A stretch of DNA of 35,253 nt from an uncultured Verrucomicrobiota bacterium (GCA_964535205.1 CAZHSS010000001.1:1-35253); one strand, 5' to 3'; numbered from the stretch's first letter, positions 1 through 22,297 are shown. Notes: a model not told the origin generated them from the letters alone. A program made the numbers and translations.

Positions 1-47
1 ATGCCACGCCTGTTGTCGTCACAAACACCCGCTCAATCACCACTAAT

Positions 48-1877
48 TTGATCGGCATGCGGGTGACGGTCGAAGATTCCCGGGACTGTGTCACAGGAGG
101 AAATCCCGGACGGCAAAACGAGGTGGCCACATTGGAAGTGCGTGATTTGCTTGAATGCGGCTATTACGTGGATATTGAAATAGAAGGATCGGTTGAGGAT
201 GTGGACGACGGTTATGACATGGTTTATTTCGAGGCCCATAGCAACAACTTCTATTTTTCAAGCCATGACGGCATTCCGGATGGGCTTAAAGAAGAATGTG
301 TTATGATAGATGAAAATGCAGAGAAAAACAATCTCATACTCGCCAACAGCACCGTTGTTCTGCGATACAACACGGTTGGCTATCGATGGCACAGCGGTGC
401 GTATGCCGAGATCATTCATGCAACGAATACAGGCCCCTACAAGGTGGTCGTTTCCGGGGCTGATGTGATATGCGTCGGCGAGACAGCGCAGATGGAGGCG
501 TCCGGTGCCGCCGGAGCACCCTTCACCTGGAGCGGCAATGGCGATATCTCGGTCAGCACGAATGGCGAAGTGACCGGCCTTGCCCCGGGAATTGCCACCG
601 TCATCGCCACCGATGCGGGCGGTTGTAGCGGAGAAAAAGAGATCATCATACTTAAGGTGGACTTGGATATAGATGCAAACTATGACGGGTCCATTGATGA
701 CGCAGATGACTATTCTGAAGAATCGCCAGGAGGCCTCGTTGTTCATTCAGATTCTTGGGATGATCGACCATTGACGAAAATCATCATTCAGAAGGTTCAG
801 CCGGAAGATTTGGATTGCAGTGTGGATCTTTCAATCTCGGCGGGCATATCAAAGATAGAGCTTTTCGAAGACTTTTTCGGAACCCAGCAAATATCTTTTT
901 TCCCTGTTACTTATCAGAATAGCGATTTGCCAAAGACGTTATGGGTTCGCTCTTGGGATACAAGTGATGCATTGGGCGATATAGAGTTTCAGCTTCAACT
1001 GAACACAATCGCCGAATGCCAAGACATCGTCCGGGGCACGTCGATTGAAGTTGAATATACTAATACTGTAAATCAAAAATACGGGTTTGATGGAGAGACC
1101 GATTTGCCAATATATTGGAAATCTATAAAGTGGTCGGATTCCGATACGGCTTTTGCGAAAATGGATCCCATTGCAGCCTCAACTCGCGTAAAATTCTCTT
1201 CGAGTTCTCCTGACATTTCCGTATCGCCTTCATCCGCTTCGACTTCTCCGGAGACTCTTACTCTTACCTCGCTCGGCACGATGGACAGCTCGATTGGGGC
1301 GGATTTGGGCGCAATTGATTATCTCAGGGCGGCTTTTCTTAATGTTAAAAACTATAGCCTTATAGAGAAGAGAGTGGCTCTTTATCGCGTTGTTGAGGGA
1401 GTAAGCAATATTCCTCCAGTTGACGCCACTTCAGCGGCCACCATCCAGGCGTATTTGAATGATTCAGTTTACAATCAGTGCGTAGCTGAATTTGAAGTTG
1501 TTGATTTTGGCATGACGAATGTGAACTATGATCTTAATAACGATGGTAAACTAGAGTACTCGTCGCCATTATCATCGGAGGCTCAAGTTATTTGCAGCGC
1601 CATTCCGCTCCCAGCTAACTTTGATTACGTTGTTTACCACGTTCACGACATTGCTGGGGCAAATGGATTTGCAAATCGAAATAATACGTATGCTTTTGTG
1701 CGTGATGGTTCCTTGTCAATACGCAACTTAATTGCCCATGAGCTTGGTCATGCTTTCGGAAATCTTCCAGATGGGGGGCCTTCTCATTGGCTGATGAACA
1801 ATACGGGTAATTGCGATGAGGGGAAAATGTTTTTACCCAAAGCTCATTGGGACCTGATCGATTCAAGACACCGCTAA
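48..1877 (+). CDS. Secreted Big_2 (bacterial Ig-like) domain protein with C-terminal zincin-type metallopeptidase motif; probably 5'-partial
   Basis: 609-aa ORF. The frame stays open back to window position 3 and there is no signal peptide at the first in-window start (TTG 48), so the true N-terminus probably lies upstream. Ig-like group-2 type segment VVVSGADVICVGETAQMEASGA...GIATVIATDAGGCSGEKEIIILKV. HELGHAFG (HExxHxxG) lies about 45 aa from the C-terminus. Low-GC codon usage. Stop TAA 1875-1877. Confidence 0.75.
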   Translation: MIGMRVTVEDSRDCVTGGNPGRQNEVATLEVRDLLECGYYVDIEIEGSVEDVDDGYDMVYFEAHSNNFYFSSHDGIPDGLKEECVMIDENAEKNNLILANSTVVLRYNTVGYRWHSGAYAEIIHATNTGPYKVVVSGADVICVGETAQMEASGAAGAPFTWSGNGDISVSTNGEVTGLAPGIATVIATDAGGCSGEKEIIILKVDLDIDANYDGSIDDADDYSEESPGGLVVHSDSWDDRPLTKIIIQKVQPEDLDCSVDLSISAGISKIELFEDFFGTQQISFFPVTYQNSDLPKTLWVRSWDTSDALGDIEFQLQLNTIAECQDIVRGTSIEVEYTNTVNQKYGFDGETDLPIYWKSIKWSDSDTAFAKMDPIAASTRVKFSSSSPDISVSPSSASTSPETLTLTSLGTMDSSIGADLGAIDYLRAAFLNVKNYSLIEKRVALYRVVEGVSNIPPVDATSAATIQAYLNDSVYNQCVAEFEVVDFGMTNVNYDLNNDGKLEYSSPLSSEAQVICSAIPLPANFDYVVYHVHDIAGANGFANRNNTYAFVRDGSLSIRNLIAHELGHAFGNLPDGGPSHWLMNNTGNCDEGKMFLPKAHWDLIDSRHR

Positions 1878-1894
1878 TGATTAAGGCATGCACC

Positions 1895-2857
1895 ATGAAA
1901 CATAACGCGTCATTATCTGTAATATTTTTTATCTTTTCACTGTCCCTTTCGGCAGGTGCTACAGAGGTCAACAACGCTTCATTCATTGCCGCGGTAGAAA
2001 AGTCTATAACCGCCGTAAAGAAGGGGGAGCCGTTCAGACTGGTCGATATTCCCCTTGCGGTTACCGATGATTCCCTGCAATTGCTTGAAAAATATAAGAA
2101 AGACCCTTCCCCAGATGTGCGCGAAGCCGCTCTTACTATATATTGCAGGATCGGTATTCGCTCAAAAGACATGGAAGTTCGACAGCGCGCGGTCGATAAT
2201 TTGGTCGAGGGGATTTTTGACTCATCAACCCTCGTTCGAGAGCATATTTCAAAACTGCTTTTTGAATTTTCACCAGAAGACTTTTCTGTTGGTGCAAAAA
2301 ATAGATTAATGGCGGCTATACAGACTAAGCCTGACTATAATGTGGTATTGGCTGTCGGGGTGGCGAACATTCAGGAGGCACTTCCCATTCTTTCAGAAAT
2401 CAGAACAAACGAAGTGGAGCGAATCGAACAGCTTATGGCTCGTCAAAGAGCTGACTCCGGTCTGTATCAGCCACGTTGGGATGTGTCCAGCCTGTACCGG
2501 GGTTCTTTGCTCGCATCCGGACGAATGGGGGAAACTTATGCAATTGAAGAATACATTCATCGCGTAGAAAATTTAGAGGAACTCTCCACACGCATGTACT
2601 TTATTAATTTATTACAGTATGTGCGACAACCAGAAGTAATTGAATTTCTTTTGAAATATTTGGACTCCAACGAATTCTATGGCGGCGAAGGAGATGTTGT
2701 AAAAGCTTTTGTAGCAGTAGATTCCGCTGAAATGTTAGTAAGTATGATCGATGGATTTCCAAGCCGGGAATATCTTGAACAAGAAGAAGCATACATCGCA
2801 CGTTGTAGAGAATGGGTATCGAATAATCCCGATAAAGTGGCGCAACAAACTGATTAA
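1895..2857 (+). CDS. Secreted HEAT/ARM-like repeat protein, function unknown
   Basis: Start chosen at ATG 1895 (MKHNASLSVIFFIFSLSLSAGA, a typical signal peptide) rather than the ORF-track start 1847, which overlaps the upstream gene. HEAT-like repeats DPSPDVREAALTIYCRIG and MEVRQRAVDNLVEG. Stop TAA 2855-2857. Confidence 0.7.
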   Translation: MKHNASLSVIFFIFSLSLSAGATEVNNASFIAAVEKSITAVKKGEPFRLVDIPLAVTDDSLQLLEKYKKDPSPDVREAALTIYCRIGIRSKDMEVRQRAVDNLVEGIFDSSTLVREHISKLLFEFSPEDFSVGAKNRLMAAIQTKPDYNVVLAVGVANIQEALPILSEIRTNEVERIEQLMARQRADSGLYQPRWDVSSLYRGSLLASGRMGETYAIEEYIHRVENLEELSTRMYFINLLQYVRQPEVIEFLLKYLDSNEFYGGEGDVVKAFVAVDSAEMLVSMIDGFPSREYLEQEEAYIARCREWVSNNPDKVAQQTD

Positions 2858-2882
2858 TAGATTCGCTATCCTTCTCTTCTGG

Positions 2883-2915
2883 TAAAGGGGCCGTAAAGGG
2901 GCCGTAAAGGGGCCG
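2883..2915. repeat. Three perfect tandem copies of the 11-mer TAAAGGGGCCG
   Basis: Read directly: copies at 2883-2893, 2894-2904 and 2905-2915. A perfect TATAAT hexamer follows at 2920-2925 on the + strand. Confidence 0.95.
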
Positions 2916-2981
2916 GTCCTATAATTTGATGTTTTGTCCATTTCATTCCTCTGGAATTGGTTAAGAAGGCCATATTTGACG

Positions 2982-3087
2982 TTTTTGGGGCAAAAATGAC
3001 CGAAAAATGCCTCAAAATCGCGATTTTGGGCCTATTTTGAGCATTTTAGGACTGAAAATACCGTTTTCGGTCCGTTTTAGGCGATTT
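2982..3087. promoter_or_regulatory. Helically phased A/T-tract array (predicted intrinsically curved DNA) at the low-GC/high-GC junction
   Basis: Eleven A4-5 or T4-5 tracts start at 2982, 2992, 3003, 3014, 3024, 3035, 3044, 3055, 3064, 3074 and 3084. Spacings are 10, 11, 11, 10, 11, 9, 11, 9, 10 and 10 nt. The later tracts have a degenerate unit like cgATTTTgRg. Confidence 0.7.
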
Positions 3088-3586
3088 TGAAGCCGAGGCG
3101 AGAAGAGGGCCGATCGCCCGCGTGGGCGGGCTTCGCGGGGTATGGGGCGCGCCCAGGCGCCGTGCCAGCGCGGGGCCGCGCTGTCACGTCACCTGCGGGG
3201 CTTCGGGTGCGCCGTTGAATCCGCTCTCGCGGTGCGGCCGATTGGCGCGGCGGGGAGGCGGGCGGCTGCGGTTTCCCCCGCCTTGGTTTTCCCCCGGCGC
3301 CCCCATTCCGAGGCGCCCCCTTCCTTATGCGGATCATCGGCCGGGGAAAAACCCATCCCCGTTCACTCTCTGCGCTCGTTCACTGGGGGCAACCACACGG
3401 CGGCCATTTTCGTTTATGGTGCCGCCGCCCTTCCGCCTTCGCCAAGGCTACGGTGGACAAAGTCGGGTCCCCCAGCCTGTAAACCCCCGCTGCCCACTGA
3501 ACACCCCCGCACCGGAAACCCCCGGAAACCCGCAGCCAACTTCCGCCTTGCGCGGCCGGAAGGCGCGTGGTTGACTCCCCTGCGGT

Positions 3587-4789
3587 ATGCCGCCACCCTT
3601 CTCCATGTCCTGGCTCTCCGGCGCCGCCGGACCGGCCCTGCGCCGCGCCGTCCGCCGGCTGCGGGGCCTCAACGAGCGCTGCGTGGAACTGCCGCCGGCC
3701 GCCGGCGCCTCCCCGCGCGGGCGCGTCCTGCTGTCCTACATCGTGGATGCCGTCCTCGTCCGCAGCGAACGCGACCTGCCCCACCGCCATCCGCATTTCT
3801 GGGAGACCTGGGCCATGGCGCAGGCCTTCCGCGAAGAAGGCTATGCGGTGGATGTCATCCACTGGACGCGGCGCGGCCCGCTCCCGCGCACCGATTACGA
3901 CATCTATGTGGACGTCCGCCGCAATTTTGACCGCTATGCCGCCGACCTGCCGCCTTCCTGCCTGAAGATCGCGCACATGGACACCGCGCATCACCGGGTC
4001 CACAACGGCAGCCAGCAGCGGCGGCTCGACGACCTGCGGCAGCGGCGCGGCATCGCCCTCGCCCCCTTCAAGCAGATCGAAGAAAACCGCGCCGCGGAAA
4101 ACGCCGACCTGATCACCGTTCTCGGCAACGAGTTCACCATCGGGTCGTTCGCCTTCGCCGGCAAGCCCATCCGCCGCATCCGCCTGTCCAACGCCTTCGA
4201 CTATCCGTTTCCGGACGGCCGCGACCTGGCCGCCGCCCGCCGCCGCTTCCTGTGGCTGGGCAGCGAGGGCTTTGTCCACAAGGGCCTCGATCTCGTCCTC
4301 GACGCCTTCGCCGGCCTGCCGGATCTGCACCTGACCGTCTGCGGACCCGTCGAACGGGAACCCGCCTTCCGCAACGCCTTTGCGGACCTTCTCTACCGCA
4401 CTCCCAACATCCGCACCGAAGGCTGGGTGGATGTCGCCGGCCCGCGCTTCCGGGAACTGGCCCGCCAAAGCCTCGCCCTGGTCTATCCCTCCTGCTCGGA
4501 AGGCGGGGGCGGCTGCGTCCTCACCGCCATGCATGCCGGCCTGATTCCCGTGGTCACCCGGGAGGCCAGCGTGGACATCGCCCCGGACCGCGGCGTAACC
4601 CTGCCGGACGCCTCGGTGGAATCCATCCGGACCGCGGTCCGGACCCTGTCCGCCGCGCCGCCCGCCGACCTGGAGGCCATGGCCCGCGCCGCGTGGACCT
4701 GGGCGCGGGAATTCCACACCCGCGAACGCTTCTTCAGCGAATACCGCGCCTTCGTCCGGGAACTGGATTCCTTCCGCAAGAAAGGCTGA
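3587..4789 (+). CDS. Glycosyltransferase, GT1/GT4 family (GT-B fold)
   Basis: 400 aa. C-terminal GT-B signature FLWLGSEGFVHKGLDLVLDAF ... LVYPSCSEGGGGCVLTAMHAGLIPVV. ATG 3587, TGA 4787-4789. Confidence 0.85.
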   Translation: MPPPFSMSWLSGAAGPALRRAVRRLRGLNERCVELPPAAGASPRGRVLLSYIVDAVLVRSERDLPHRHPHFWETWAMAQAFREEGYAVDVIHWTRRGPLPRTDYDIYVDVRRNFDRYAADLPPSCLKIAHMDTAHHRVHNGSQQRRLDDLRQRRGIALAPFKQIEENRAAENADLITVLGNEFTIGSFAFAGKPIRRIRLSNAFDYPFPDGRDLAAARRRFLWLGSEGFVHKGLDLVLDAFAGLPDLHLTVCGPVEREPAFRNAFADLLYRTPNIRTEGWVDVAGPRFRELARQSLALVYPSCSEGGGGCVLTAMHAGLIPVVTREASVDIAPDRGVTLPDASVESIRTAVRTLSAAPPADLEAMARAAWTWAREFHTRERFFSEYRAFVRELDSFRKKG

Positions 4790-4792
4790 TGC

Positions 4793-5779
4793 ATGGAAAC
4801 GCCGTCGTCCCCCGCCCGCCCCCATGTCTGGGCCGTTGTGCTCGGATATAACCATCCCGAGGTCACCCTCGACTGCCTGCAAAGCCTCGCCAAGGTGGAT
4901 TACCGGCCGTTCACCGTGCTGTACGTGGACAACGGCAGCGAGAGGTCCGCCTGCGAACAGGTCATGCAGAACGCGCCGGGCTGCGGCGTGCTGCGGCTGG
5001 AACCCAACGCCGGCGTCGCCGGCGGCTTCAACGCCGGCATCCGCCATGCCCTGGCGCACGGGGCGGATTATGTCCTCATCCTGAACAACGACACCACGGT
5101 CGAGCCCGGATTCGCCGGACATCTCGTCGCCGCCGCCCTGGCGCATCCCCGCGCCGGCCTGCTCGTGCCCAAGATCTACTACCACGGCCACCCCGATACC
5201 GTCTGGTCCGCCGGCTCCGTGTTCCGGCGCTTTCCCCCCGTCGTCACCATGCGCAAAACGCGCGGGCCCGACGACGGCCGCTACGACCGGCCCGGCGACC
5301 TGGACTTCGCCACGTTCTGCGTCATTATGTTCAGCCGCGCCATCCTCGAAACCGCCGGCCTGATGGATCCCGACTACCATTTCCTCTACGAAGACTACGA
5401 CCTGTGCCTGCGCGCGCGCGAAGCGGGGTTCGGCATCCGCTACGTGCCCGATGCGCATGTCTGGCACAAAATCTCCATGACCACCGGCGCCGGCACCCCC
5501 AATCCCCAATTCTGGCATACCTACGGCCGCAGCGAATCCATCTTCCGCCGGAAGTTCCGCCGCCACCGCTGGCTGACCGGCTGGACCCACGCCGCCTACA
5601 TCGTGGCGCGCTTCGTGTTCGAGGGCAACCGGTATGGCGTCCGCCCCTACCTCCAGGGCTGGCGGCAGGGCGCCCGCGATCCCCTCCACCCCCCGCCGCG
5701 CCTCGACACGCCGTCCGCCGCTTCTGAAACGCTGCTGCGCGAGCCGGCACACGCGCCGGAGCGTCCATTGGGCGCTTGA
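4793..5779 (+). CDS. Glycosyltransferase family 2 (WbbL/rhamnosyltransferase-like)
   Basis: 328 aa. Motifs VVLGYNHPEVTLDCLQSL, YVDNGS, NAGVAGGFNAGI, LILNNDT and YEDYDLCLRAREAGFGIRYVPDAHVWHK. Starts 3 nt after the upstream stop. Confidence 0.88.
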   Translation: METPSSPARPHVWAVVLGYNHPEVTLDCLQSLAKVDYRPFTVLYVDNGSERSACEQVMQNAPGCGVLRLEPNAGVAGGFNAGIRHALAHGADYVLILNNDTTVEPGFAGHLVAAALAHPRAGLLVPKIYYHGHPDTVWSAGSVFRRFPPVVTMRKTRGPDDGRYDRPGDLDFATFCVIMFSRAILETAGLMDPDYHFLYEDYDLCLRAREAGFGIRYVPDAHVWHKISMTTGAGTPNPQFWHTYGRSESIFRRKFRRHRWLTGWTHAAYIVARFVFEGNRYGVRPYLQGWRQGARDPLHPPPRLDTPSAASETLLREPAHAPERPLGA

Positions 5780-9086: not shown

Positions 9087-10418
9087 ATGACCACCCCGCC
9101 CGCCACCCTTCGTTCCCTCTGCGATTCCTTCGACGCCGAACGCGAAGGAAGCGGACTCTTCGATCTCGCCGCCCGCCTGTTCCCCATCTGCCGCAGCCTC
9201 ACCGGCGAAGGCAACCGGCAGACCCTCGCCATCCTGTCGGAGCAGATTCCGCTCCACATCCGCGAAGTGCCCAGCGGCACCCCGGTCCTGGACTGGACCG
9301 TGCCGCCGGAGTGGACCCTCCGCGAAGCCTGGATCCGGGATCCGCAGGGCCGCACGATCGTTGATTTCCGGAACCACAACCTCCATGTGGTCGGCTACAG
9401 CCGGCCTGTCCGCCGGACCCTGACGCTGGACGAGCTCCGGCCGCATCTGCATAGCCTGCCCGATCACCCGGACTGGATCCCCTACCGCACCTCCTACTAC
9501 CGCGACACCTGGGGATTCTGCCTGCCCGACGCGCTGAAGCAATCCCTCGCCCCGGGAAATTATGAAGTCTGCATTGATTCGGATTTGAAGCCCGGCCACT
9601 TGACTTACGGGGAACTGGTTCTGCCCGGAGCGGACTCCGGCGAATTTCTGTTTTCCACCCACATCTGCCATCCGTCACTGGCCAACGACAACGCCTCGGG
9701 CATGGCCGTGGCCGCCCGGCTGGCGGCGCTTCTGGCCGGCGTTCCCCGTCGCCTGACCTGCCGGTTCCTGTTCATTCCGGGCACCATCGGCTCCATCACC
9801 TGGCTGGCCCGCAACCGCGAAACGGCGGACCGGATCCGCCACGGGCTGGTGCTGTCCTGCCTGGGCGACCCGGGATCGCCCACCTACAAGCAGAGCCGCC
9901 GCGGCAACGCCGTCATCGACCGGGCCGCGGCCCATGTCCTCCGCCACAGCGGACGCCCCCACGCCGTTCAGTCCTTTTCACCCTACGGCTACGACGAACG
10001 CCAGTACGGCTCGCCCGGCTTCAACCTCCCGGTCGGCCTGTTCATGCGCTCGCCCCACGGGACGTTCCCCGAATACCACACCTCGGCCGACAACCTCGAT
10101 TTCATCCGGCCCGATTCCCTGGCCGACTCCCTCCTCCGGCTGCTGGAAACCGTCGCGGTGGTGGACGGCAACGCGACCTTCCTCAACCAATGTCCGTACG
10201 GCGAACCCCAGCTCGGCCGCCGCGGCCTGTATGATTTGCTCGGCGGCGCCAACGAACGCCACGACCAGCAGATGGCCATGTTGTGGGTGCTGAACCAGTC
10301 CGACGGCGGGCCGTCGCTGCTGGACATCGCCGACCGCGCCGATCTGCCGTTCTCCCGCATCCGGGAGGCGGCGGACCGGCTGGCCGGCGCCGGACTGCTC
10401 AGGGAAAAGGAGACCTAG
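9087..10418 (+). CDS. COG4310 / DUF4910 aminopeptidase-like-domain protein associated with polysaccharide loci
   Basis: 443 aa. CRSLTGEGNRQTL, LDWTVPPEWT, FSTHICHPSLANDNASGMAV, TSADNLDF, and a C-terminal winged-helix-like tail. The family call is from memory of these motifs. Confidence 0.75.
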   Translation: MTTPPATLRSLCDSFDAEREGSGLFDLAARLFPICRSLTGEGNRQTLAILSEQIPLHIREVPSGTPVLDWTVPPEWTLREAWIRDPQGRTIVDFRNHNLHVVGYSRPVRRTLTLDELRPHLHSLPDHPDWIPYRTSYYRDTWGFCLPDALKQSLAPGNYEVCIDSDLKPGHLTYGELVLPGADSGEFLFSTHICHPSLANDNASGMAVAARLAALLAGVPRRLTCRFLFIPGTIGSITWLARNRETADRIRHGLVLSCLGDPGSPTYKQSRRGNAVIDRAAAHVLRHSGRPHAVQSFSPYGYDERQYGSPGFNLPVGLFMRSPHGTFPEYHTSADNLDFIRPDSLADSLLRLLETVAVVDGNATFLNQCPYGEPQLGRRGLYDLLGGANERHDQQMAMLWVLNQSDGGPSLLDIADRADLPFSRIREAADRLAGAGLLREKET

Positions 10419-13140: not shown

Positions 13141-14208
13141 GTGGCTGGCCGAACGAAACAAAACGGGCCGTGGTTGGGTATGCTTCTCGTCTGTTCCCTG
13201 GTCCTGGCGGGGCCGATCTCCTGCTCGCGGTCCAGACCATCCGGCGCGCCGGACCCGGCCGGGCAGCGCCTCCGCGAATTCGTCGGCGGACCGGCGCGGC
13301 TGGTATGGATTCAGCAGGTGGACGGAGATGGGGACGACCCTTTTTGCAATGACAGCCGCCTGGTCCTGATGGGCCTGGATACGGAAGACGGGCGGGGGCC
13401 GCGCCCCATTGTGAGCACCGTCACCAACTACCACCGGCCCATGCTCACGCCGGACGGCCGGCATGTGGTGTACAGCCGCCAAACCACGCGGGAGGCCTTT
13501 GCCGTGGCCTGGAATGGCGGCCGGCCGCGGCGGCTCGGGGCAGGCTATGCCGCCGCCACCTGGCAGGACCCGGCCACCGGCGCCGTCTGGGTCTACATGG
13601 CCGACAACGGCACGTCGGGGAAGGAACGCAATCACGCCAAGACCCTGCATCGCGTGCGTCTTGACGACCCGTCGGTACGGGAAGTGGTCTGGGATCTCGC
13701 CAAGTTCACCTTCAACAGCCTGCAGTTGTCCGCCGATGGCACGCGGGCCTGCGGCCAGTTCATCCATCCCCGCGCCGGCTTCGCGGAACTGCCCAATCGC
13801 TCCTGGACCTATCTGGGGCGCGGGTGCTGGACGTCCATCGCCCCCGACAACAGCTATCTCGTCTGGATATTCGACAACCCGCACCGCAACCTCATCTTCC
13901 ACGATCCGACCGAAAACACGTCCTGGAGCGTCCCCATCGGGTCCCCCCCCGAAATGAAGGGCTTCGAAGTTTACCACCCGCGCTGGAGCAATCACCGCCG
14001 GTTTTTCACCCTGACCGGCCCCTACGAAATCGGCCGTCCGGGCGCGAATCTGATCGGAGCCGGCGGGCCCGGCGTGGAGGTATGGATCGGAAAATTCGCG
14101 CCTGACCTCAAAACGGTCGAGAACTGGCTGCAGATTACCCATGACCGTCTGGGCGATTTCTATCCCGACCTGTGGGTCGCCCCGCCGGCCCCGGCTCACC
14201 GGAAGTAG
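13141..14208 (+). CDS. Exported (possible lipoprotein) beta-propeller protein, TolB/PD40-like
   Basis: GTG 13141 (alternative ATG 13180) lies 5 nt after the upstream stop. Signal sequence AGRTKQNGPWLGMLLVCSLVLAGPISC. PD40-like LTPDGRHVVYS and repeated strand patterns. The rest of ORF 12886.. is an Arg-rich overlap with the upstream gene. Confidence 0.6.
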   Translation: MAGRTKQNGPWLGMLLVCSLVLAGPISCSRSRPSGAPDPAGQRLREFVGGPARLVWIQQVDGDGDDPFCNDSRLVLMGLDTEDGRGPRPIVSTVTNYHRPMLTPDGRHVVYSRQTTREAFAVAWNGGRPRRLGAGYAAATWQDPATGAVWVYMADNGTSGKERNHAKTLHRVRLDDPSVREVVWDLAKFTFNSLQLSADGTRACGQFIHPRAGFAELPNRSWTYLGRGCWTSIAPDNSYLVWIFDNPHRNLIFHDPTENTSWSVPIGSPPEMKGFEVYHPRWSNHRRFFTLTGPYEIGRPGANLIGAGGPGVEVWIGKFAPDLKTVENWLQITHDRLGDFYPDLWVAPPAPAHRK

Positions 14209-14290
14209 GGCCAACCGAAGAAGGGTTGCGCCCCGTACCCTCACATGGCCGGCGAATCCGCGCGGCGGAATCCGGACAACCGCAACCGGC

Positions 14291-14980
14291 CTACAGCGCG
14301 CCGGCAAAAGCAAAGGCGATGATCTGGGTCCCGGTGGCGTTGGGATGGAATCCGTCGGCCAGCATCAAGCCCTCGCCCGACCCGAATTCCGCGGCGACAT
14401 CCACCAGGGCCACGCCTTCTTCCGACGCCAGCGAGCGGATGTGGCCGTTCATCTCGTCCACCCGCGTCATCAGGACGCTCATGTCGCCGGTCATCGGAGG
14501 AATCGTGGCCAGGATGGGTTTCCCTCCCGCCGCCCGGACCTGACGGACAATGTTCCGCAGGCACTCCTTGGAATTGGCCAGCACGTGATAGGCCAGGGCA
14601 TCGTTCGTTCCCAGCAGAATCAACACAATCCGGGGCTTGCGCGTCAGGATGGAATCCACGCTGTTGGACGCCCGGCAGGTGCTGATGCCCCCCACGCCCC
14701 GGTTCACCACCGTTTCGCCGATGATCCGGGACAGCCGCGAAGGATAGGACTCCGATCCCGGATCCGCCTCCCCGCTCGTAATGCTGTCGCCGTAGGCCAC
14801 GATGGACCGGGTGACCGTTCCGGTCGAACTGTTTGTCTCCTCCTGGACCTCTTCTTCCGCCTCCGGCTCGGGGGCGCGGCTGCTTCCCGAGGAGTCATCG
14901 CAGCCCGACACCGCCAGGGCCCACCCCAGCAGCAGCAGAACCAGCCATGCCCGCGCCATCATCTGTCCGATTGTTTTCAT
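14291..14980 (-). CDS. SGNH/GDSL hydrolase lipoprotein (candidate polysaccharide esterase)
   Basis: Start set at ATG 14980: MKTIGQMMARAWLVLLLLGWALAVSGC (lipobox). SGNH blocks YGDSITSG, LLGTNDA and DGFHPNATG. Confidence 0.85.
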   Translation of the reverse strand: MKTIGQMMARAWLVLLLLGWALAVSGCDDSSGSSRAPEPEAEEEVQEETNSSTGTVTRSIVAYGDSITSGEADPGSESYPSRLSRIIGETVVNRGVGGISTCRASNSVDSILTRKPRIVLILLGTNDALAYHVLANSKECLRNIVRQVRAAGGKPILATIPPMTGDMSVLMTRVDEMNGHIRSLASEEGVALVDVAAEFGSGEGLMLADGFHPNATGTQIIAFAFAGAL

Positions 14981-15377: not shown

Positions 15378-15968
15378 CTATTCTTCTGGGTCAATAGGTC
15401 CAACTTCCCAATTGAACGTACCGTTCTCCGTGGCACCGATTCTCCAATCTAGTATCTGGAAGAGCTTAATATGAGGAAATGCATTCGAATATGTCTTATG
15501 CATATATTCAATTTTTTCGGGGGAACGAGCATGATATGGAAGATTTGTTGGATTCGATTCTCTTGAGATATGTATTGGGCTAGCCATTGGGACACGTTCC
15601 TTAATAATTTCTTCAGGAACCCGGTTTGAAACAGCCAGGACATAAGCCTGAGCGGCAGCTTTCGCGGCAAGATAATCCACTTCTGCTACGCGGTAATACT
15701 CGAATAAAAGCCCCATGGCAAGAAGATCATTGGTGTTCTCCGCTAAGCGATTAGTGATGGCGGTTTTAATTCGCGGATAGTTGGTTTCCATCCATGCGGC
15801 ATTCACCTCCTGCACGAATGGGTCCGCATCGTAACCGCTGGAGACGCCATCACCGTCCACTGCAAAGTATACCAGGCTAAGGTCAATTTCTCCATCCTGA
15901 CTGAATCCACAACCGGGGAATATGATTGCATGAATTGAACATATAAGTGCAATGGTTTTAATATTCAT
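15378..15968 (-). CDS. Secreted (possible lipo-)protein, paralog 4 of the tandem ~180-aa family
   Basis: 196 aa. AGGAAGG lies 7 nt upstream of the ATG. Signal MNIKTIALICSIHAIIFPGC. Shares VNAAW.ETNYP.IKTAITNRLAENTNDLLAMGL..EYY...VDYL.AKAAAQAYVLAVSNRVPEE ... PTNLP ... EYMH ... DPEE with the three upstream genes. Confidence 0.8.
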   Translation of the reverse strand: MNIKTIALICSIHAIIFPGCGFSQDGEIDLSLVYFAVDGDGVSSGYDADPFVQEVNAAWMETNYPRIKTAITNRLAENTNDLLAMGLLFEYYRVAEVDYLAAKAAAQAYVLAVSNRVPEEIIKERVPMASPIHISRESNPTNLPYHARSPEKIEYMHKTYSNAFPHIKLFQILDWRIGATENGTFNWEVGPIDPEE

Positions 15969-16036
15969 GGGTTAACCTTCCTGACTTCTCTACCAAGTAT
16001 TCTTTCGTTGAGGGATACAATTGTTGCAGTTTTCAT
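15965..16036 (-). pseudogene. Relic 5' end of a paralog-2-like gene (23-codon ORF MKTATIVSLNERILGREVRKVNP)
   Basis: ATGAAAACTGCAACAATTGTATCC resembles the paralog-2 start ATGAACACAGCAACAACCGTTATC. It sits in the same position relative to the conserved 3' flank of the preceding gene. Its TGA overlaps the paralog-4 ATG (ATGA). Confidence 0.4.
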
Positions 16037-16195
16037 ATGCTCAGGACAGCATAGGCTGTTGGGCTATTCTTCCGGATCAACAAATCCAACACCCCAGATT
16101 AACTTGCCCTCTTCTTGGAGTTTTACGCGGCCTGCCACGATTTGATAAACACCGACATGTGGAAAACCATCTGAATACGTGCTGTGCATATATTC
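16033..16195. repeat. Direct repeat copy A (3' end + 3' flank of paralog 3)
   Basis: Hand alignment with 17181-17343 (offset 1148 nt) gives 6 mismatches in 163 nt. Beyond this block, mismatches become frequent and fall mostly at 3-nt spacing. Confidence 0.85.
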
Positions 16196-16609
16196 TATTT
16201 GAGCAGGGGTTCTCGCCTGTTCAGGTACAGAAGGCAGATTTGTGGGCATAGCCTCGCGAGCATATACTAGTGGAAGTTTCATTAGATCCCTCTGCTCATT
16301 TATCTCCTCCGGAACACGATTAGATACCGCAAGCACATACGCTTGGGCAGCAGCTTTTGCATTAGTGTAATTCACTTCTGCTGAAATATAGTATTCAAAT
16401 TGAATGCCCAGCGCCAGCAGGTCATTTGTACAAATTGCCAATCGGTTGGTAATTGCCTGCTTGATCAATGGGTAATTCGTGGCTACCCAAGCGGTATTGA
16501 CCTCTTCGATAAAGGCGTCTTGCTCACATTCCGCATAAGAGGAGGCTACTGCGGGAACAACAGCCATTAGCGCAAGTATAACGAATTTACTATGCAGCAG
16601 CGATTTCAT
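16064..16609 (-). CDS. Secreted protein, paralog 3 of the tandem family
   Basis: Start set at ATG 16609 (MKSLLHSKFVILALMAVVPAVASSYAEC). 181 aa. The C-terminal 53 aa are identical to paralog 1. Confidence 0.8.
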   Translation of the reverse strand: MKSLLHSKFVILALMAVVPAVASSYAECEQDAFIEEVNTAWVATNYPLIKQAITNRLAICTNDLLALGIQFEYYISAEVNYTNAKAAAQAYVLAVSNRVPEEINEQRDLMKLPLVYAREAMPTNLPSVPEQARTPAQIEYMHSTYSDGFPHVGVYQIVAGRVKLQEEGKLIWGVGFVDPEE

Positions 16610-16650
16610 TCTGCAGCATGTGTAATTCACGCAAATTGACCAGTTGCGAT

Positions 16651-17184
16651 TCAATCCCTGTTCAATGGGTTGAAATAGCCATTTGTGACCAAGCCTTGCT
16701 CTATAGCCTCGATGCGGAACATGAGGCTTTGGTAGAGGATAAGCGAAGGATAATTCTCGGGATACTCATCATGCAGAAATTGCATCTGTTCTGGCGTTTT
16801 GGACTGATCAGCAGGAAAGTTGGTTGGGATTGGCATTTCGACAAGAGAAATTGCCCCTTCCAAAGGGGCCCGTTTATGAATCACTTCCGTTGGCATGCGG
16901 TTGGATGTTGAAAGGATAAAGTCTGATGCGGCGGCACGGGCTTTATAGAAGTCAATCGATATATCATCATAATATTGATACAGTAATCCTTTCGCTAATA
17001 AATCATTTGTACAATCAGCAACACGGTTGGTGAGCACCTGCTCCAACAGGGTGTAATTGCTGGCCACCCAGGCCGAATTAACGGCTTGGATAAACAAGTT
17101 TGTATCACTGCACTCCGCATATCCGGGTGCTGGTACGAATATGCCTATAAAAAGGCATATGATAACGGTTGTTGCTGTGTTCAT
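16651..17184 (-). CDS. Secreted protein, paralog 2 (most divergent member) of the tandem family
   Basis: 177 aa. Signal MNTATTVIICLFIGIFVPAPGYA. Retains EC...VNSAWVASNY...TNRVADCTNDLLAKGL and PTNFP, but has a different C-terminus (…FNPLNRD). Confidence 0.78.
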   Translation of the reverse strand: MNTATTVIICLFIGIFVPAPGYAECSDTNLFIQAVNSAWVASNYTLLEQVLTNRVADCTNDLLAKGLLYQYYDDISIDFYKARAAASDFILSTSNRMPTEVIHKRAPLEGAISLVEMPIPTNFPADQSKTPEQMQFLHDEYPENYPSLILYQSLMFRIEAIEQGLVTNGYFNPLNRD

Positions 17185-17343
17185 ATGCTCAGGACAGCAT
17201 AGGCTGTTGGGCTATTCTTCCGGGTCAACAAAGCCAACGCCCCAGATTAATTTACCCTCTTCTTGGAGTTTTACGCGGCCTGCCACGATTTGATAAACAC
17301 CGACATGTGGAAAGCCATCTGAATACGTGCTGTGCATATATTC
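17181..17343. repeat. Direct repeat copy B (3' end + 3' flank of paralog 1)
   Basis: See copy A. It includes the stop codon, about 27 nt of downstream flank, and the ATG of the next gene. Confidence 0.85.
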
Positions 17344-17748
17344 AATCTGCGCTGGTGTTCTTGCCTGTTCTGGCACGGGGGGCAGGTTTGTAGGAACGGG
17401 ATCCCAAGCAACGCTAATTGGCAAGCCCATAGGAATTCGCTTCTCATTCACTTCTTCTGGAATACGGTTTGACACGGAAAGAACATATGCCTGTGCCGCC
17501 GCTCTAGCGCTAAGATAATCCACTTCAGCAGACATATAATACTCGAAATACAGACCCATTGCCAGAAGATCGTTTGTGCATTCTGCCAAACGATTGGTGA
17601 TCGCCTGCTTAATCAACGGATAGTTCGTGGCTATCCATGCGGCGTTTACCTCCGCGATAAACTCATCAGACTCACATTCCCCATAAGTGTATGGTCCGCA
17701 TACTGCAACCACAATAAGCATGGCGGATATTAGAATTTTTGTTTTCAT
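17212..17748 (-). CDS. Secreted protein, paralog 1 of the tandem family
   Basis: ATG 17748 preceded by AGGAAGG (8-nt spacer). The alternative GTG 17757 overlaps the giant gene's TGA. MKTKILISAMLIVVAVCGPYTYGEC..., about 178 aa. Confidence 0.8.
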   Translation of the reverse strand: MKTKILISAMLIVVAVCGPYTYGECESDEFIAEVNAAWIATNYPLIKQAITNRLAECTNDLLAMGLYFEYYMSAEVDYLSARAAAQAYVLSVSNRIPEEVNEKRIPMGLPISVAWDPVPTNLPPVPEQARTPAQIEYMHSTYSDGFPHVGVYQIVAGRVKLQEEGKLIWGVGFVDPEE

Positions 17749-17753
17749 TAGAT

Positions 17754-20700
17754 TCACCTTCCTGCTGCTTGTTCCATAAGTGCTCTTGTCGATTCAATCA
17801 AACCTATGGAATTGGTTTCGGCAATGCCCCCTCCGGGCCATTCCTTGGAAACCCTCATGCCTGGAGGCTGCATATCCAATGCGTTGGTCTGAATAACACT
17901 TGCCAGCGAATAACCCTGTGCCAGAGCAATTCCGGCATCATAGCATTCCCGGGCATATTGATCGTCCTTAGCGCCGACAATTCCGCCTTTAAAGAACCGA
18001 TAAGCATTCGGACCGTAGGGCAAAAGCCAAGAAGGGATGCCCATGTGATAGGCAAACATGGCAAAGCCCATGTTATTGCGCTTGGCAAAATCCGTCACAT
18101 AGGGACGGGAGTTACCTGCAATCACAAATCTTGAGGAATCCCCCGCTGAATCGTCTGTTGTGTATGCATGGGCAAGCCCGCAGATGTCTTGCCAACGCTC
18201 ATGTGGGGTTACATAGTCGAAATCAAGGCCAATAGTTTCAAGGTCGTTAAGCCATAACTCCGCTTTTTTCTCTTCGATCCTATTGGTATTACTGTGATGT
18301 TCAGCAGGCAACTCTGAAAGGGCCCTTGTCGTCTTGTAGGCATCATAATCGACAATCCAGTCATCGAGATAGTCGATTTCCCGCTGAAAGTCCACGGAGA
18401 TATCCGGCCCGCTGACGGGGAGCCACATCTGCGAGGTGATGGGGTCGGCACCGGGGATGGTGGTGGTGAAGGTGTAGAGCCCGCCTTTGGTGGCATTGGA
18501 GAACGTGGCGACGGGTTGGTCGCTGTTCAGCAGAGTTCCCGAGTTGGGCCCGTCGGTTTTCGCCCAGGTCACGCCCGGCAGGTCTTCGGGATGGACGTGC
18601 AGGGTGACATTGAAGTTTGTGGGATCGCCTTCGGGCGTAGAGGCTTTATCAAAGAGAATGGTAAGAGCACGCCCCTGTTTGTTTTGATCGATTCGTGCAG
18701 CCTCCTTTTCTTCCGCCCATACCGGATAACACACGAGTTCCGGCGGATCGGAGCCGAAACCCACAGGGGACTTCTCCGCCAAACTGCATTCCAGTTCAAC
18801 AAGAAATCCAATGGGTTCGATGGTGCCATAGGCGAAGAATTCATTTGTCCATGGGCGACCCGCCGTATAAGTCGGGGTATAGACATCGCCGCCGGTCCCG
18901 ATTGTGGAATAGCTTTGCAGCCGGTAATCCGAATAGGTGCTCATTCCCTGCGGGCGAAATGCCTCCAGCCACATCATCTTATAGACCACGCCGCTTGTTG
19001 TCGGTATCATCCATCGGTACTGCAGGTCCTGAAGGAATAGATTAGTGTGGTCCTCTGAGAGAAGGGAGGCAGAAAATATCTCGTTGGTGGGCAGGCTCTC
19101 TATCCAAGGTTCCTGCCGGTGATTCTCGCGTGTCCAACGCTGCCCCCAGGTAATGCCGGCCCAGTTGAGCAACGGCGGAAGATCCTGAACCGTATAAAAC
19201 AAGAGCATATCCGTTGTGTATTCGTTGGTTAGCGCGGTGGTTTCATACTCGAAGGAATCCGGATCCGGTATGCCCCACGTCCACAGGTAGTGATCATATG
19301 CATTGCTAATGCCCGATGATGTATGGGTGCTGACCTCGAGTTCATCATCCAGCGGCATCAGGCAGGTGTTCACGTTGTATGACAACGGGATGATAGCGCC
19401 GTTCAGGTATTGCGTGCCGTGCACAACCAAATATTCATTGGGCTGCTCATACTCATAGGCGACCTGCCATATGGAGTGATATTCTTCATAGCCCCCATAT
19501 AGATGATAATTGTCATAGTAGCTCTCTTCTCCCCTGCATACATGATTGGATGGCGTGTCGGGCCAGCCATTGGGATCAAATTGCTTCAGGCATAAACGGG
19601 ATGCCGAGTGGATCATGTGTTCGCTGACATCCTCATCCGAATAGTGGCCGTCTCCATTGGCTTCGTATCTGGCTTCTCGACTCAAATACCACTTGGGCGG
19701 ATCGGAGGGCGGCAGAAACGAATTGGTGTATTCGGGATATCCTTCTTTTTGCCGATATGTGGACACGGCTTTGGCTTCTAAGTTGTCCTGGTCTAAATAG
19801 ATGTAACCGCCGCCAGATGATCGGCGGAGTTCCGCCGGATTTGGATTGTAGTACACAAAAGTTACTTCATTCGATTCGAACATTGGAAGGCCCAATTCGT
19901 ATTCTTCCCGGTTTGTCAGATGATCCCCATCCGGATCTTCTTCCGCATCGGTCGCGTTGTTGGGATCAAGACCCAGACTGATTTCCACTCCATCCGGAAT
20001 GGAATCCGCATCTGTATCGGCATCTTCGGGGCTGGTCCCATAGGTGTTGACCTCATCGCCATCGGATAGACCATCGCCATCGGTATCTGCCAGGGTTGGA
20101 TTGGTCTCTTCCTTGTATTCCTGAATATTGGTTAGGCCATCCCCATCTTTGTCGCCAAAAGCATCATACATGTCCGCGATGCCGCTAGGCCCCAGGGCAC
20201 CCGCATATACTCGGATATCGTCCAGCATGCCTTCCCATTTTTCCGTATAGAAAGGATCCTGCCCGTCACCCAGGGAAAAGCGGGCGTTGCCGGCATTGGT
20301 AAAGGATGCGGTCACGGCGCTCCCGGCTGGCGCTCCATTGAGATAAAGCTGCATCTGGGCGCCATCATACTCCATGGCCACCCATATCCATTGTTCTATC
20401 CGTGCCGTATTGTCCGTCAGCATGGTATTGTCCACCATACCAAACGCATGCGCCGAGGAATTAAAACCTATACAATAGCCGATATAGTGGTAGGAAGGCA
20501 GAATGCTCATATCGCTGATAATTTGCGGGTAGTCCGATGTGCAGTTGCCATCCAGCCATACCCAGGCGCTGACCGTAAACGGCCCCCCCGTCAACATGGC
20601 GGTGGCCTGGACGATCTCCACCCTGTCGTCTGATCCATCAAACCGCAAGGCCCCGCCAATTTTGCCTGCTTCAGCCCATCCGCTGTTCGTCGTTTCTGTA

Positions 20701-21887
20701 AACCCGATCAATTCTCCGTGAAAATTCTCTGTGGCTGAATTGAGCGCATTCGTTCCCTCGCCGTCGTCCAGCTTCCACCACCCCAGCAGCGACTCATCCA
20801 GTCCGGATCGGGCATTCATGCCATATTTCACTTCCCAGCCATCCGGCATGCCGTCCCCATCCGTATCCGACATTTCCGGGTCCGTGCGGTACAGGAATAT
20901 CTCCTGTCCGTCGGAAAGGCCATCGCCATCACGGTCCTGCCGCTTGCTAGCGGCATAATAGCGGATTCGGTCGTTGCCGGTTATATTCGTATCCTCCCAA
21001 GTACCCGCTCCGTTGGTCAGCACGAGATTGGTTGTTCCATGGACCCACTCGCTTTCGATGCCGTTGAACCCAGGCGAAACCGGGTGCCAGACCGTATTCG
21101 TGCGCGTGATCACTTCGTCATATTCGTTTGTCCAGGTGGACACCACGACCGACGATGTGTGCCCTACTGTATAGGTATAGATTTCCGCAATGTCCGTTCC
21201 GTTCGTGACAGCAATCAGCATGGTGCCGTTCGTGGTTATCTGGGAGCAACAAAACCCGAATTCATTGCCTCCCAATCTGTTCTTAGCCATTACGTTCGAT
21301 CGCTTCATTTTCATGGCGTTATAAGTAGAAAGGGTATTTGCGATTCGGCTTTCGGTGTATAGGTAAGGCTCGACATCCTCGGCGGGGAGCAAATCCAGTA
21401 TCAGGGTCACGCGGGCCGGGTCGGCATCCTCGGGCCATTCGCGGGACACCCGGTCGGCCGGGATGGTCGCAATCAACTTGCCCTCGGCATTGTAAACGAG
21501 GGTTTCGCGCGTCTTCGGGTCCTGCGTCAGCGATAGAGGATAAATCGCCACGCTGTTCTTGTCCTCGCCCAACAGTTCATCGAGAAACTTCTCGTCGAAG
21601 TTGTCGGCATCAAACGGCACCACAGACGGAAACATCGGCTGAACCCAGGAAAATCCCGGCGGGGTCATGCGGTTGAACCGGCGGCGCTGGATTTCCGCGC
21701 CCTCCGCCAAGTCCTGAATATCAAAAACCTCGTTTTCGATGAAATCGGCGTACTGCTCGGCTTCGACGGCAGCGGACTTTTCGATCCGTGCCAAATCCGA
21801 CGCAAGAGCGGCAAGACAAAGTGCGGCGGCAATGGCGGCGATGCCAATCCCGATGACGGGCTTGTGGTTCATCCTCGGTATTCTCAT
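17754..21887 (-). CDS. Giant signal-anchored/secreted protein: N-terminal region, TSP3 Ca-binding repeats, LamG (laminin-G_3/concanavalin-like) domain, second TSP3 block, ~700-aa C-terminal region of unknown function
   Basis: Start set at ATG 21887 (AGGAG 8 nt upstream): MRIPRMNHKPVIGIGIAAIAAALCLAALA. TSP3 repeats DRDGDGLSDGQ / DTDGDGMPDGWE (about 20800-20940). LamG region LLGWWKLDDGEG...ALRFDGSDDRVEI...FTVSAWVWLDG...MQLYLNGAP...LDDIRVYAGAL (about 20190-20790). TSP3 block DKDGDGLTN...DTDGDGLSDGDE...DTDADSIPDG...DPDGDHLTNREE (about 19890-20160). Stop TGA 17754-17756. Confidence 0.85.
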   Translation of the reverse strand: MRIPRMNHKPVIGIGIAAIAAALCLAALASDLARIEKSAAVEAEQYADFIENEVFDIQDLAEGAEIQRRRFNRMTPPGFSWVQPMFPSVVPFDADNFDEKFLDELLGEDKNSVAIYPLSLTQDPKTRETLVYNAEGKLIATIPADRVSREWPEDADPARVTLILDLLPAEDVEPYLYTESRIANTLSTYNAMKMKRSNVMAKNRLGGNEFGFCCSQITTNGTMLIAVTNGTDIAEIYTYTVGHTSSVVVSTWTNEYDEVITRTNTVWHPVSPGFNGIESEWVHGTTNLVLTNGAGTWEDTNITGNDRIRYYAASKRQDRDGDGLSDGQEIFLYRTDPEMSDTDGDGMPDGWEVKYGMNARSGLDESLLGWWKLDDGEGTNALNSATENFHGELIGFTETTNSGWAEAGKIGGALRFDGSDDRVEIVQATAMLTGGPFTVSAWVWLDGNCTSDYPQIISDMSILPSYHYIGYCIGFNSSAHAFGMVDNTMLTDNTARIEQWIWVAMEYDGAQMQLYLNGAPAGSAVTASFTNAGNARFSLGDGQDPFYTEKWEGMLDDIRVYAGALGPSGIADMYDAFGDKDGDGLTNIQEYKEETNPTLADTDGDGLSDGDEVNTYGTSPEDADTDADSIPDGVEISLGLDPNNATDAEEDPDGDHLTNREEYELGLPMFESNEVTFVYYNPNPAELRRSSGGGYIYLDQDNLEAKAVSTYRQKEGYPEYTNSFLPPSDPPKWYLSREARYEANGDGHYSDEDVSEHMIHSASRLCLKQFDPNGWPDTPSNHVCRGEESYYDNYHLYGGYEEYHSIWQVAYEYEQPNEYLVVHGTQYLNGAIIPLSYNVNTCLMPLDDELEVSTHTSSGISNAYDHYLWTWGIPDPDSFEYETTALTNEYTTDMLLFYTVQDLPPLLNWAGITWGQRWTRENHRQEPWIESLPTNEIFSASLLSEDHTNLFLQDLQYRWMIPTTSGVVYKMMWLEAFRPQGMSTYSDYRLQSYSTIGTGGDVYTPTYTAGRPWTNEFFAYGTIEPIGFLVELECSLAEKSPVGFGSDPPELVCYPVWAEEKEAARIDQNKQGRALTILFDKASTPEGDPTNFNVTLHVHPEDLPGVTWAKTDGPNSGTLLNSDQPVATFSNATKGGLYTFTTTIPGADPITSQMWLPVSGPDISVDFQREIDYLDDWIVDYDAYKTTRALSELPAEHHSNTNRIEEKKAELWLNDLETIGLDFDYVTPHERWQDICGLAHAYTTDDSAGDSSRFVIAGNSRPYVTDFAKRNNMGFAMFAYHMGIPSWLLPYGPNAYRFFKGGIVGAKDDQYARECYDAGIALAQGYSLASVIQTNALDMQPPGMRVSKEWPGGGIAETNSIGLIESTRALMEQAAGR

Positions 21888-22297
21888 TGGGCATGCTCCT
21901 GGGTGGTGGCATGAACCCGGTGCCGCGCAAAACTGGTAAGAGGCGCGAACTCCAAGCCCATGCCCTGTAGAGGGACCGACAAGCCCCACCGAAGAACACA
22001 AGACGAGGAGCCGCGCCCATGGTGGGCGCGTCTTTCAAGTCTCGTTCTTCGGTTGAAAGCTGTCGGTTTTCTACAGAACGATTCCCCGCTCGCGCGGGGA
22101 AGACTTCAAAACGCAAATTGATAAAGAACAGCGTCCGAACAATAACCGTTCCGGAACTACTGTACTTATCGTAGAAGCTGGAGCATATGGCAAGAATAAA
22201 TATTAGAACAAAAGGACAAAATGCCAAAAGACAGGGCAATTGCCGGGCGCAAGCGATCTTGACGCCTCCTCCCCTTTTCTGCACCTTGCCTTCCATC

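Follow-up and report, generated by a model that had tools for sequence, protein, structure and literature searches.

Zhang et al. 2012 provide a catalogue of polymorphic toxin systems (PMC3482391; see also the review PMC4436062), HEAT-repeat proteins being among the immunity proteins listed (PMC3482391). In Neisseria, MafB proteins join a Sec signal and a lineage-restricted N-terminal domain to a variable C-terminus, followed by a downstream immunity gene (MafI) and alternative cassettes (PMC5349182), with MafA acting as the secretion partner of MafB (PMC7738311). Here we analyze a block of five genes in a 35,253-nucleotide (nt) stretch of DNA from an uncultured Verrucomicrobiota bacterium (GCA_964535205.1, CAZHSS010000001.1:1-35253; the window). 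Going by the names attached to homologs of the giant protein described below, the source belongs to Kiritimatiellia. A large modular protein with a predicted export signal (the giant) is followed in this block by four tandem genes for small exported paralogs, P1 to P4. Judged from comparison with relatives, the block is probably a locus of the polymorphic effector/immunity type, in a form that only Kiritimatiellia have. A module resembling polymorphic toxin and immunity genes had been proposed in an earlier note on the window, and the proposal is supported by the linkage of the giant's variable C-terminal tip to a downstream partner gene, by tip-partner co-variation, by orphan cassettes, and by a constant N-terminal part that carries 49 types of tip.

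MafB/MafI appears to be the closest analogue of the giant/paralog locus, in architecture only. The likeness includes several modules per genome and islands with signs of horizontal transfer, features seen here in the window or in relatives. Unlike MafB, the giant has no DUF1020 (PF06255) match in a Pfam scan and no sequence relation to that family; proteins of the giant's family exceed MafB three- to fourfold in size and have a stalk of TSP3, LamG, beta-rich and PKD segments; there is no conserved upstream gene for a MafA-like outer-membrane lipoprotein; and the partners are exported, with signal peptides.

Short motifs precede the tip in two other systems, VENN in CdiA and PxxxxDPxGL in Rhs proteins. 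With CdiA-CT/CdiI and Rhs-CT/RhsI the locus shares a conserved body, a variable tip, a short junction (here WLPVSGPDIS) and a downstream immunity gene (here putative), as well as start-less orphan cassettes of tip and immunity gene with a homology arm and arrays of extra immunity genes. It differs from contact-dependent growth inhibition systems in that the giant has no TPS domain, FHA repeats or VENN motif by Pfam and NCBIfam, and the window has no CdiB/ShlB/POTRA-type gene. It differs from Rhs systems in that the giant has no RHS_repeat or TEN_YD-shell match, an RHS toxin being merely the neighbor of one relative. PAAR/VgrG and LXG/WXG trafficking domains are absent from the giant. Amidase and muramidase effectors of type VI secretion systems (T6SS) act in the periplasm and are paired with periplasmic immunity proteins. 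The partners here similarly have a signal peptide or lipobox, which would place them where immunity to envelope-targeting activities is expected, and other tips of the family look peptidase-like; in contrast to the T6SS pairs, T6SS genes are absent, effector and immunity families already known show no homology, and an envelope target is suggested by partner localization.

To relate tips to partners, loci were gathered either through the paralogs, in a metagenome scan, or through homologs of the giant. At all 8 junctions with upstream DNA, from 7 loci (the window, L001 twice, L003, L004, L005, L008 and L089), a paralog-family gene stands directly after a homologous tip, with a spacing of 9-12 nt or a 4-nt overlap; at L002, L006 and L007 the upstream DNA ends at the contig edge, the contigs of P0124, a distant relative of the paralogs, are too short, and these loci lie outside the count. 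The earlier note had proposed a survey of the neighborhoods of paralog homologs, and wherever upstream DNA exists they were found beside a homologous tip. The identity between tips tracks that between first partners (r = 0.98 over 21 locus pairs, and 0.95 without a near-identical pair). Within the single genome of L001, the tips of the main and orphan cassettes are 44% identical and their partners 42%.

The linkage extends to more divergent tips. In P0024, the body is another one but the tip is 37% identical to that of the window, and the next gene encodes a divergent member of the paralog family (profile E 2e-39). The distant tips of P0010 and P0107 have only the junction and a few motifs in common with the window tip, and are followed by exported proteins of ~150 amino acids (aa) that match the paralog profile weakly (1e-4 and 8e-7). 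Other tips of the family have partners of other kinds: HEAT-repeat proteins stand after two of them (L092_187, L091_157b), the P0008 tip and an orphan tip of L091 are 72% identical with HEAT-repeat partners that are 48% identical, and an orphan DUF6973 tip in L091 has a lipoprotein next downstream. The paralogs themselves vary in copy number from 1 to 4, with 2 in L003 and 4 in L004 even though the tips of these two loci are 100% identical.

The giant belongs to a large family, with ~1461 matches at E<=1e-3 in 5.8e9 proteins, some of which may match TSP3 or LamG alone. The family was mapped by BLAST, and its tips clustered, on the best 120 of these ~1461 matches. Almost every one of the best 120 is 55-76% identical to the giant over residues 1-358, a stretch made up of the signal, the N-terminal domain (N-domain) and the first TSP3 block. 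Past residue 358 the bodies vary, being built of LamG, lamin-tail (LTD), beta-helix or Big_2 domains or of no recognizable domain. The beta-rich body domain of the giant, here named Mid, recurs in ~30 of the relatives listed, and in many of these a different C-terminal end comes after it. The entire region 600-1377 was found only in P0002-P0005 within the best 120. For the last ~350 aa, no more than 12 homologous clusters were found in 5.8e9 proteins, 6 of them identified by a dedicated search and the others being P0001-P0005 and P0024.

Clustering of the last 250 aa of the best 120 gave 49 tip clusters, single clusters of which span different bodies. Within their last 150 aa, 11 of the 49 types of tip contain an HExxH motif, where shuffling predicts 0.17. 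A few family tips reach a Pfam family (Peptidase_M7, 6.5e-5; Trypsin, 6.8e-4; Reprolysin_3, 9e-4), and the rest are without assignment.

Several observations indicate that tip and partner move together. The L001 orphan open reading frame (ORF; 13816-14649), which comes after the full-length gene and its partner, has no ATG; it has ~50 aa of pre-tip arm in common with that main gene, up to WLPVSGPDIS, and continues into a divergent tip, followed by its partner. Both orphan cassettes of L091 start in the end of the Mid domain, one leading into the DUF6973 tip with its lipoprotein and the other into the P0008-type tip with its HEAT-repeat protein. In the window, G+C at third codon positions (GC3) drops in steps, from 0.79-0.88 in the flanking genes through 0.60-0.69 in the N-domain, LamG, Mid and PKD segments of the giant to 0.49 for the tip and 0.41-0.48 for the paralogs; the second TSP3 block, a short one, has 0.51. 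The step where the tip begins is compatible with recombination having exchanged a tip-plus-partner cassette. Relatives occupy unrelated chromosomal sites, some of them beside genes for ISL3, integrase, rve, Y1 transposase or RHS proteins. A foreign or recent origin of the cassette is suggested by its composition, by these sites and by recombination among the paralogs. Taken together, mixed tips on a constant N-terminal part, a junction, a coupled and co-varying downstream gene, orphan cassettes, partner arrays and island character, all seen here, define polymorphic toxin systems (PMC3482391, PMC4436062).

Three of the relatives' loci deserve description in their own right. In L091 (8700-16077), P0010 and its partner are followed by an ISL3 transposase gene, the two orphan cassettes and a phage-integrase-domain gene. 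In L094 (5600-21400), P0058 and a 217-aa downstream gene lie among genes for an rve-integrase, a group II intron maturase and a Y1 transposase, adjoined by a gene for an RHS-repeat protein of 1863 aa, after which comes another small gene of its own; with these mobile genes and the RHS neighbor, the region looks like a conflict island. L004 opens (25-5169) with a fragment of a beta-helix/TSP3 exoprotein ending in a trypsin-like GDSGNP motif, then four tandem paralogs of ~200 aa, a different type of partner, each ending in a PEP-CTERM sorting signal (IPEPATAGLLILG…RRR), so that a large exoprotein with four secreted paralogs is seen here once more. This set is directly followed by a copy of the giant that is 5'-truncated, counted here with the orphan cassettes, and by four genes of the P1-P4 family.

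We then characterized the four paralogs of the window. They are 43-74% identical to P1 (P3 74%, P4 57%), with 47 invariant columns; N38, W41, N45, Y46, R56, S96-N97-R98, H142 and R161 are among the invariant residues. The N-terminus of each has a basic n-region and a hydrophobic stretch, and a conserved cysteine pair (AEC...ECTND) lies right after the predicted cleavage site, which fits export. No match to the paralogs was found in Pfam, NCBIfam or PADLOC, and no relative among PDB sequences, in line with the earlier note, which could place them in no known family; the PADLOC-DB defence models gave zero families for all five proteins of the block. A profile search of 1.84e9 cluster representatives returned 68 relatives, 17 of them below 1e-10, so the family is rare, and 61 of the 68 representatives have an N-terminal hydrophobic, signal-like segment. 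The AlphaFold2 (AF2) model of P1 is all-helical, with a per-residue confidence score (pLDDT) of 84 and a core above 90. Its best Foldseek matches are TPR proteins, weakly (E 0.2-3, best 0.23; TMq ~0.35), and Pfam TPR gives no match; the model suggests a helical-repeat-like, TPR-like fold.

P1 is most similar to the partners that stand after the tips most like that of the window, making it the candidate cognate partner, or immunity protein, of the resident tip. P2 is instead 67-70% identical to the first partner of L003/L004-type tips, which are 44% identical to the window tip, and is a candidate non-cognate, "collected" immunity protein. The arrays of L003 and L004 in turn end in a P1/P3-like copy (57-61%). 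With P2 resembling the partner of another subtype of tip, the array has the look of a collection of immunity genes. The subtype of P4 occurs also in P0202, P0204 and P0205 in public data. The last ~125 nt of P1 and P3 are 92-100% identical, third codon positions included. They lie within a direct repeat of 242 nt (88% identical; 16021-16262 and 17169-17410, spacing 1148 nt) that spans the 3' ends of both genes and 43 nt past their stops, and third positions are near-identical in that tract only. The near-identity indicates that the array underwent gene conversion or duplication recently.

To gain insight into the activity of the tip, we searched it separately. Its own Pfam scan was empty, and a profile search of PDB sequences gave nothing at E<=10. 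AF2 predicts helices for it (pLDDT 45-83). Some of its short strings recall known enzymes and were followed up. A lysozyme or lytic transglycosylase, suggested by "CGLA…" and by the SLT-like strings "AYNAG/YDAG", was rejected, as there is no PDB or Pfam match, the catalytic Glu is not conserved and the cysteine is replaced. A Cys-His peptidase ("ICGLAH") was dropped on the same replacement, the "CGLA" cysteine being Tyr or Gly in homologs. Ntox44 (PF15607) is a predicted toxin domain, all-alpha in fold, that occurs in polymorphic toxin systems and has the motifs DxK, GNxxxG and DxxxD (PMC3482391). It matched two divergent relatives of the tip, P0190 and P0010, in the same register but far below threshold (E 0.05-0.06; 14.2-14.3 bits, where the gathering score is 24). 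The tip of the window gives no Ntox44 match, and its alignment with homologs does not evidently contain the three motifs. Ntox44 and the tip are both all-alpha C-terminal domains, and the weak matches are a lead only.

The domain structure of the giant is given in Table 1. Its ORF remains open further upstream, to a TTG at 22001, and an identical protein is present in public data (P0001). The earlier note had called the protein signal-anchored; its N-terminus looks instead like a cleavable Sec signal, with …AALCLAALA before the predicted site and SD after it, and homologs keep the A-x-A. The N-domain, with 78 invariant columns in an alignment of 8 diverse members and no relative in Pfam, NCBIfam or PDB sequences, is proposed to be the trafficking or anchoring module of the family. 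The LamG and TSP3 domains of the earlier description are borne out by Pfam: Laminin_G_3 matches residues 417-570 (E 1.5e-17, 64.5 bits, cut-off 27.6), and TSP3_bac reaches 58.9 bits (cut-off 25) across four stretches. Partial NCBIfam matches to MtsD/CglD map onto the first TSP3 block. The LamG insert is optional, being missing in P0002-P0005, which otherwise have the N-domain and residues 600-1377.

The region ~680-1377, unassigned in the earlier note, is not one unit. It comprises most of Mid, a PKD/Ig-like domain and the tip, and only residues 1165-1377 are truly variable, leaving the last ~213 aa, and not ~700 aa, as the effector candidate. AF2 was run on residues 647-1377 (731 aa; mean pLDDT 69.6). 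The PKD/Ig-like domain (~1093-1156) corresponds to strands at model positions 447-510 and matches PKD 2yrl in Foldseek with probability 1.0 and in phmmer with E 0.11, with a weak Pfam match to K319L-like_PKD. When the 731-aa model was searched in PDB and BFVD with Foldseek, loose adhesin- and phage-fibre-like matches of low TM came up, all on the beta domains. L7, P8, G11 and P12 of the junction motif do not vary among the aligned tip homologs (A4).

Table 1 Features of the window, with coordinates counted from its first nucleotide
Feature	Coordinates	Strand	Basis or remarks
Giant exported modular protein, effector-carrying gene (candidate)	17754..21887	-	ORF, 1377 aa from ATG
Paralog P1 (181 aa)	17212..17757	-	GTG start overlaps the TGA stop of the giant as GTGA (translational coupling)
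Paralog P2 (177 aa)	16651..17184	-
Paralog P3 (181 aa counted from MKSLL)	16064..16609	-
Paralog P4 (196 aa)	15378..15968	-	N-terminal region longer
Giant: predicted Sec-type signal peptide, residues ~1-35	21783..21887	-	Basic n-region, hydrophobic core, ALA before and SD after the site; sequence and alignment of 19 homologs
Giant: conserved N-terminal domain, residues ~36-315 (~280 aa)	20943..21782	-	55-76% identical across unrelated C-terminal parts
Giant: first TSP3 (calcium-binding type) block, residues ~316-365	20793..20942	-	Pfam TSP3_bac
Giant: LamG (concanavalin-like) insert, residues ~366-595	20103..20792	-	Pfam Laminin_G_3
Giant: second TSP3 block, residues ~596-646	19950..20102	-	TSP3_bac best stretch 601-618; repeat self-matches
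Giant: beta-rich Mid body domain, residues 647-1010	18858..19949	-	BLAST ranges; AF2 model beta-rich, pLDDT mostly 70-94
Giant: linker and PKD/Ig-like domain, residues ~1011-1154	18426..18857	-	AF2, Foldseek, phmmer, weak Pfam
Giant: junction motif WLPVSGPDIS, residues 1155-1164	18396..18425	-	Tip alignment; homologous tips diverge after the motif
Giant: variable C-terminal tip, residues 1165-1377 (~213 aa), predicted alpha-helical, candidate effector/toxin	17757..18395	-
Second family member, 3' part, cut by contig start	3..1877	+	Tip differs; zincin motif HELGH
Signal-peptide HEAT-repeat protein, candidate partner/immunity of the second tip	1877..2857	+	ATG 1877 or 1895; HEAT_2 E 1e-6

These features are consistent with the following mechanism. 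The giant would be exported by its Sec signal and handled or anchored by the N-domain, which is common to more than 100 proteins, and the stalk of TSP3, LamG, beta-rich body and PKD-like domain would present the exchangeable alpha-helical tip. Tip and following gene or genes form one cassette, swapped by recombination at WLPVSGPDIS, as the relatives, the orphans and the GC3 break show. The small TPR-like proteins may be exported to the periplasm or cell surface, there to bind and neutralize the tip, with P1 as the cognate partner and P2-P4 as extra immunity against tip variants of neighboring strains. Because the partners are exported, the target of the tip would most likely be in the envelope or periplasm of competing bacteria.

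Several results weigh against an effector/immunity locus. The tip has no assigned toxin activity, no Pfam or PDB relative and a model of only moderate confidence; none of the Foldseek matches of the 731-aa model falls on it; and its alignment has no evident invariant Cys/His/Glu catalytic set. No conserved adjacent secretion or delivery gene (T5, T6, T7 or MafA-like) was found in the window or in the relatives' loci examined. The window holds no orphan tip, its extras being partner genes only. In L095, the next gene after an N-domain member with a lamin-tail domain (P0109) lies ~690 nt downstream without tight coupling, and some members of the family may therefore not belong to an effector/partner pair. 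Part of the co-variation of tip and partner could be due to co-inheritance of adjacent genes, and the peptidase-like tips that many members carry also fit degradative exoenzymes with inhibitors.

This last point leads to an improbable alternative, in which the family consists of nutritional enzymes, secreted or surface-bound, each with a downstream exported inhibitor or maturation factor that guards the producer's own envelope, and antagonism plays no part. LamG- and CBM-like modules do occur in polymer-degrading enzymes, the partners are all exported, and no delivery apparatus is evident. Start-less orphan cassettes, arrays of inhibitor paralogs and mixed tips on a constant N-domain would, however, be atypical of nutritional enzymes, as would insertion sequence (IS), integrase and RHS toxin neighbors, and the window tip has no similarity to any hydrolase. 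In mechanism the explanation overlaps an effector with a protective partner, the target alone being different. It is equally unlikely that the giant is a variable surface adhesin or fibre, its tip binding glycans, cells or phage decoys, the small proteins serving as periplasmic chaperones or adaptors, and the orphans providing antigenic or ligand variation. Such a protein would account for the adhesin-type modules of the body (TSP3, LamG, beta-rich, PKD), for a top Foldseek match to the SraP adhesin region along with phage-fibre-like ones, for a tip without catalytic signature, and for a position amid surface-glycan genes; TPR-like folds are also commonly chaperones. The Foldseek matches are nevertheless unspecific (TM-scores ~0.1), the glycan context is not conserved among relatives, and other tips of the family are enzymes by their HExxH motifs or trypsin-like matches. 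Up to four divergent paralogs would be left unexplained, especially P2, which matches the partner of a tip subtype absent from this genome region, and adaptor or chaperone roles for the paralogs are thus less likely.

It is very unlikely that the small proteins, all four of them, are secreted along with the giant as subunits or cargo and assemble on its tip into a multi-subunit surface complex without protective function. Their operon-like tight coupling with the giant and their signal peptides would suit such a role, and co-variation of tip and first protein is expected of any binding pair, but the number of copies differs between near-identical tips (L003 and L004), arrays hold types that fit other tips, and different tips have partners of unrelated fold (HEAT, lipoprotein, TPR-like). 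All three explanations fit the cross-type arrays, the orphan cassettes and the enzyme-like tips elsewhere in the family less well than does a polymorphic effector/immunity locus. A bolder form of the latter, which the comparisons would allow and which we regard as tentative, a little less probable than its opposite, is that the N-domain is an undescribed platform, Kiritimatiellia-wide and possibly PVC-wide, that exports and delivers interchangeable antibacterial effectors through a novel outer-membrane route, similar in role to CdiA, Rhs or MafB though unrelated to them, with the tip as a new envelope-targeting toxin fold and the paralogs as a new exported TPR-like immunity family.

The extent of the N-domain was also examined in a contig scan. 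One of its patterns (DGMPDGWE) is a TSP3 repeat, and most of the 80 loci returned are therefore unrelated TSP3 proteins from many phyla. Most of the N-domain could be aligned only at L009 (56% identity) and L010-L013 (26-29%), and part of it at L028, L060 and L074. L010-L013, from metagenome-assembled genomes of Verrucomicrobia and Victivallales, are distant, near full-length matches outside Kiritimatiellia, and with them the N-domain may extend across the PVC group.

A second member of the family lies at the start of the window. Its first 220 aa are 90% identical to residues 435-654 of P0058 and 79% to residues 460-681 of P0024, both of which have the N-domain. Pfam gives nothing for its tip. 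G+C is 0.47 in this gene and 0.43 in the adjoining HEAT-repeat gene, versus 0.66 for the genome.

The composition and setting of the five-gene block largely agree with the earlier description. The large exported protein and its four tandem exported paralogs are all present on the minus strand, and the block is lower in G+C than its glycosyltransferase flanks (0.45-0.56 vs 0.63-0.69). Of the gaps of 5-95 nt reported earlier, those between the paralogs stand (27, 41 and 95 nt for P1-P2, P2-P3 and P3-P4); the 5-nt gap to the giant holds only if P1 starts at an alternative ATG at 17748, 9 nt into the GTG-started ORF, which itself overlaps the giant. The five genes occupy the whole block, leaving it without integrase or transposase, as noted before, and without tRNA or flanking direct repeat, and plasmid and phage collections gave no blastn similarity to it. 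An origin of the block as a mobile element was dropped on these grounds. A scan for promoters and terminators gave chance-level results only.

The block is indeed flanked by glycan-synthesis genes (GT1, GT2, nucleotidyltransferase, sugar C-methyltransferase, dTDP-sugar epimerase, hexapeptide acyltransferase, GDSL and GT4). A function in the glycan locus was dropped: the relatives' cassettes lie beside ribosomal, amino-acid, hydrogenase and kinase genes, and because these neighborhoods are unrelated the glycan context appears incidental. Among the glycan genes, at 9087-10418 (+), is a gene for a DUF4910/DUF2172/winged-helix-turn-helix (M28-peptidase-like) protein (Pfam E 8e-107), a finding outside the block.

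The principle of such a locus is known, and the locus is not a conceptual surprise; none of the searched libraries contains the N-domain, Mid, the junction, the tip or the TPR-like exported partner family. In anoxic sediments, digesters and guts, Kiritimatiellia abound as degraders of polymers, and their genetics is almost unstudied. A full-text literature search found no paper that ties polymorphic toxins to Kiritimatiellia and no interbacterial weapon system for them. If the effector/immunity interpretation is correct, the family (~1461 matches, some maybe TSP3 or LamG only) would be a lineage-specific polymorphic toxin platform. It would contribute dozens of candidate effector domains and immunity families, with at least 49 tip types in the best 120 and including the alpha-helical tip and the TPR-like partner, and its N-domain could open a way to the machinery by which the phylum exports or delivers proteins. 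Low-G+C giants annotated as "LamG domain-containing", together with the small hypothetical genes that follow them, would then be read as effector/immunity cassettes and not as parts of glycan loci. The locus offers a solid starting point, open to test, for work on antagonism between bacteria and on protein export in a phylum that has received little study.

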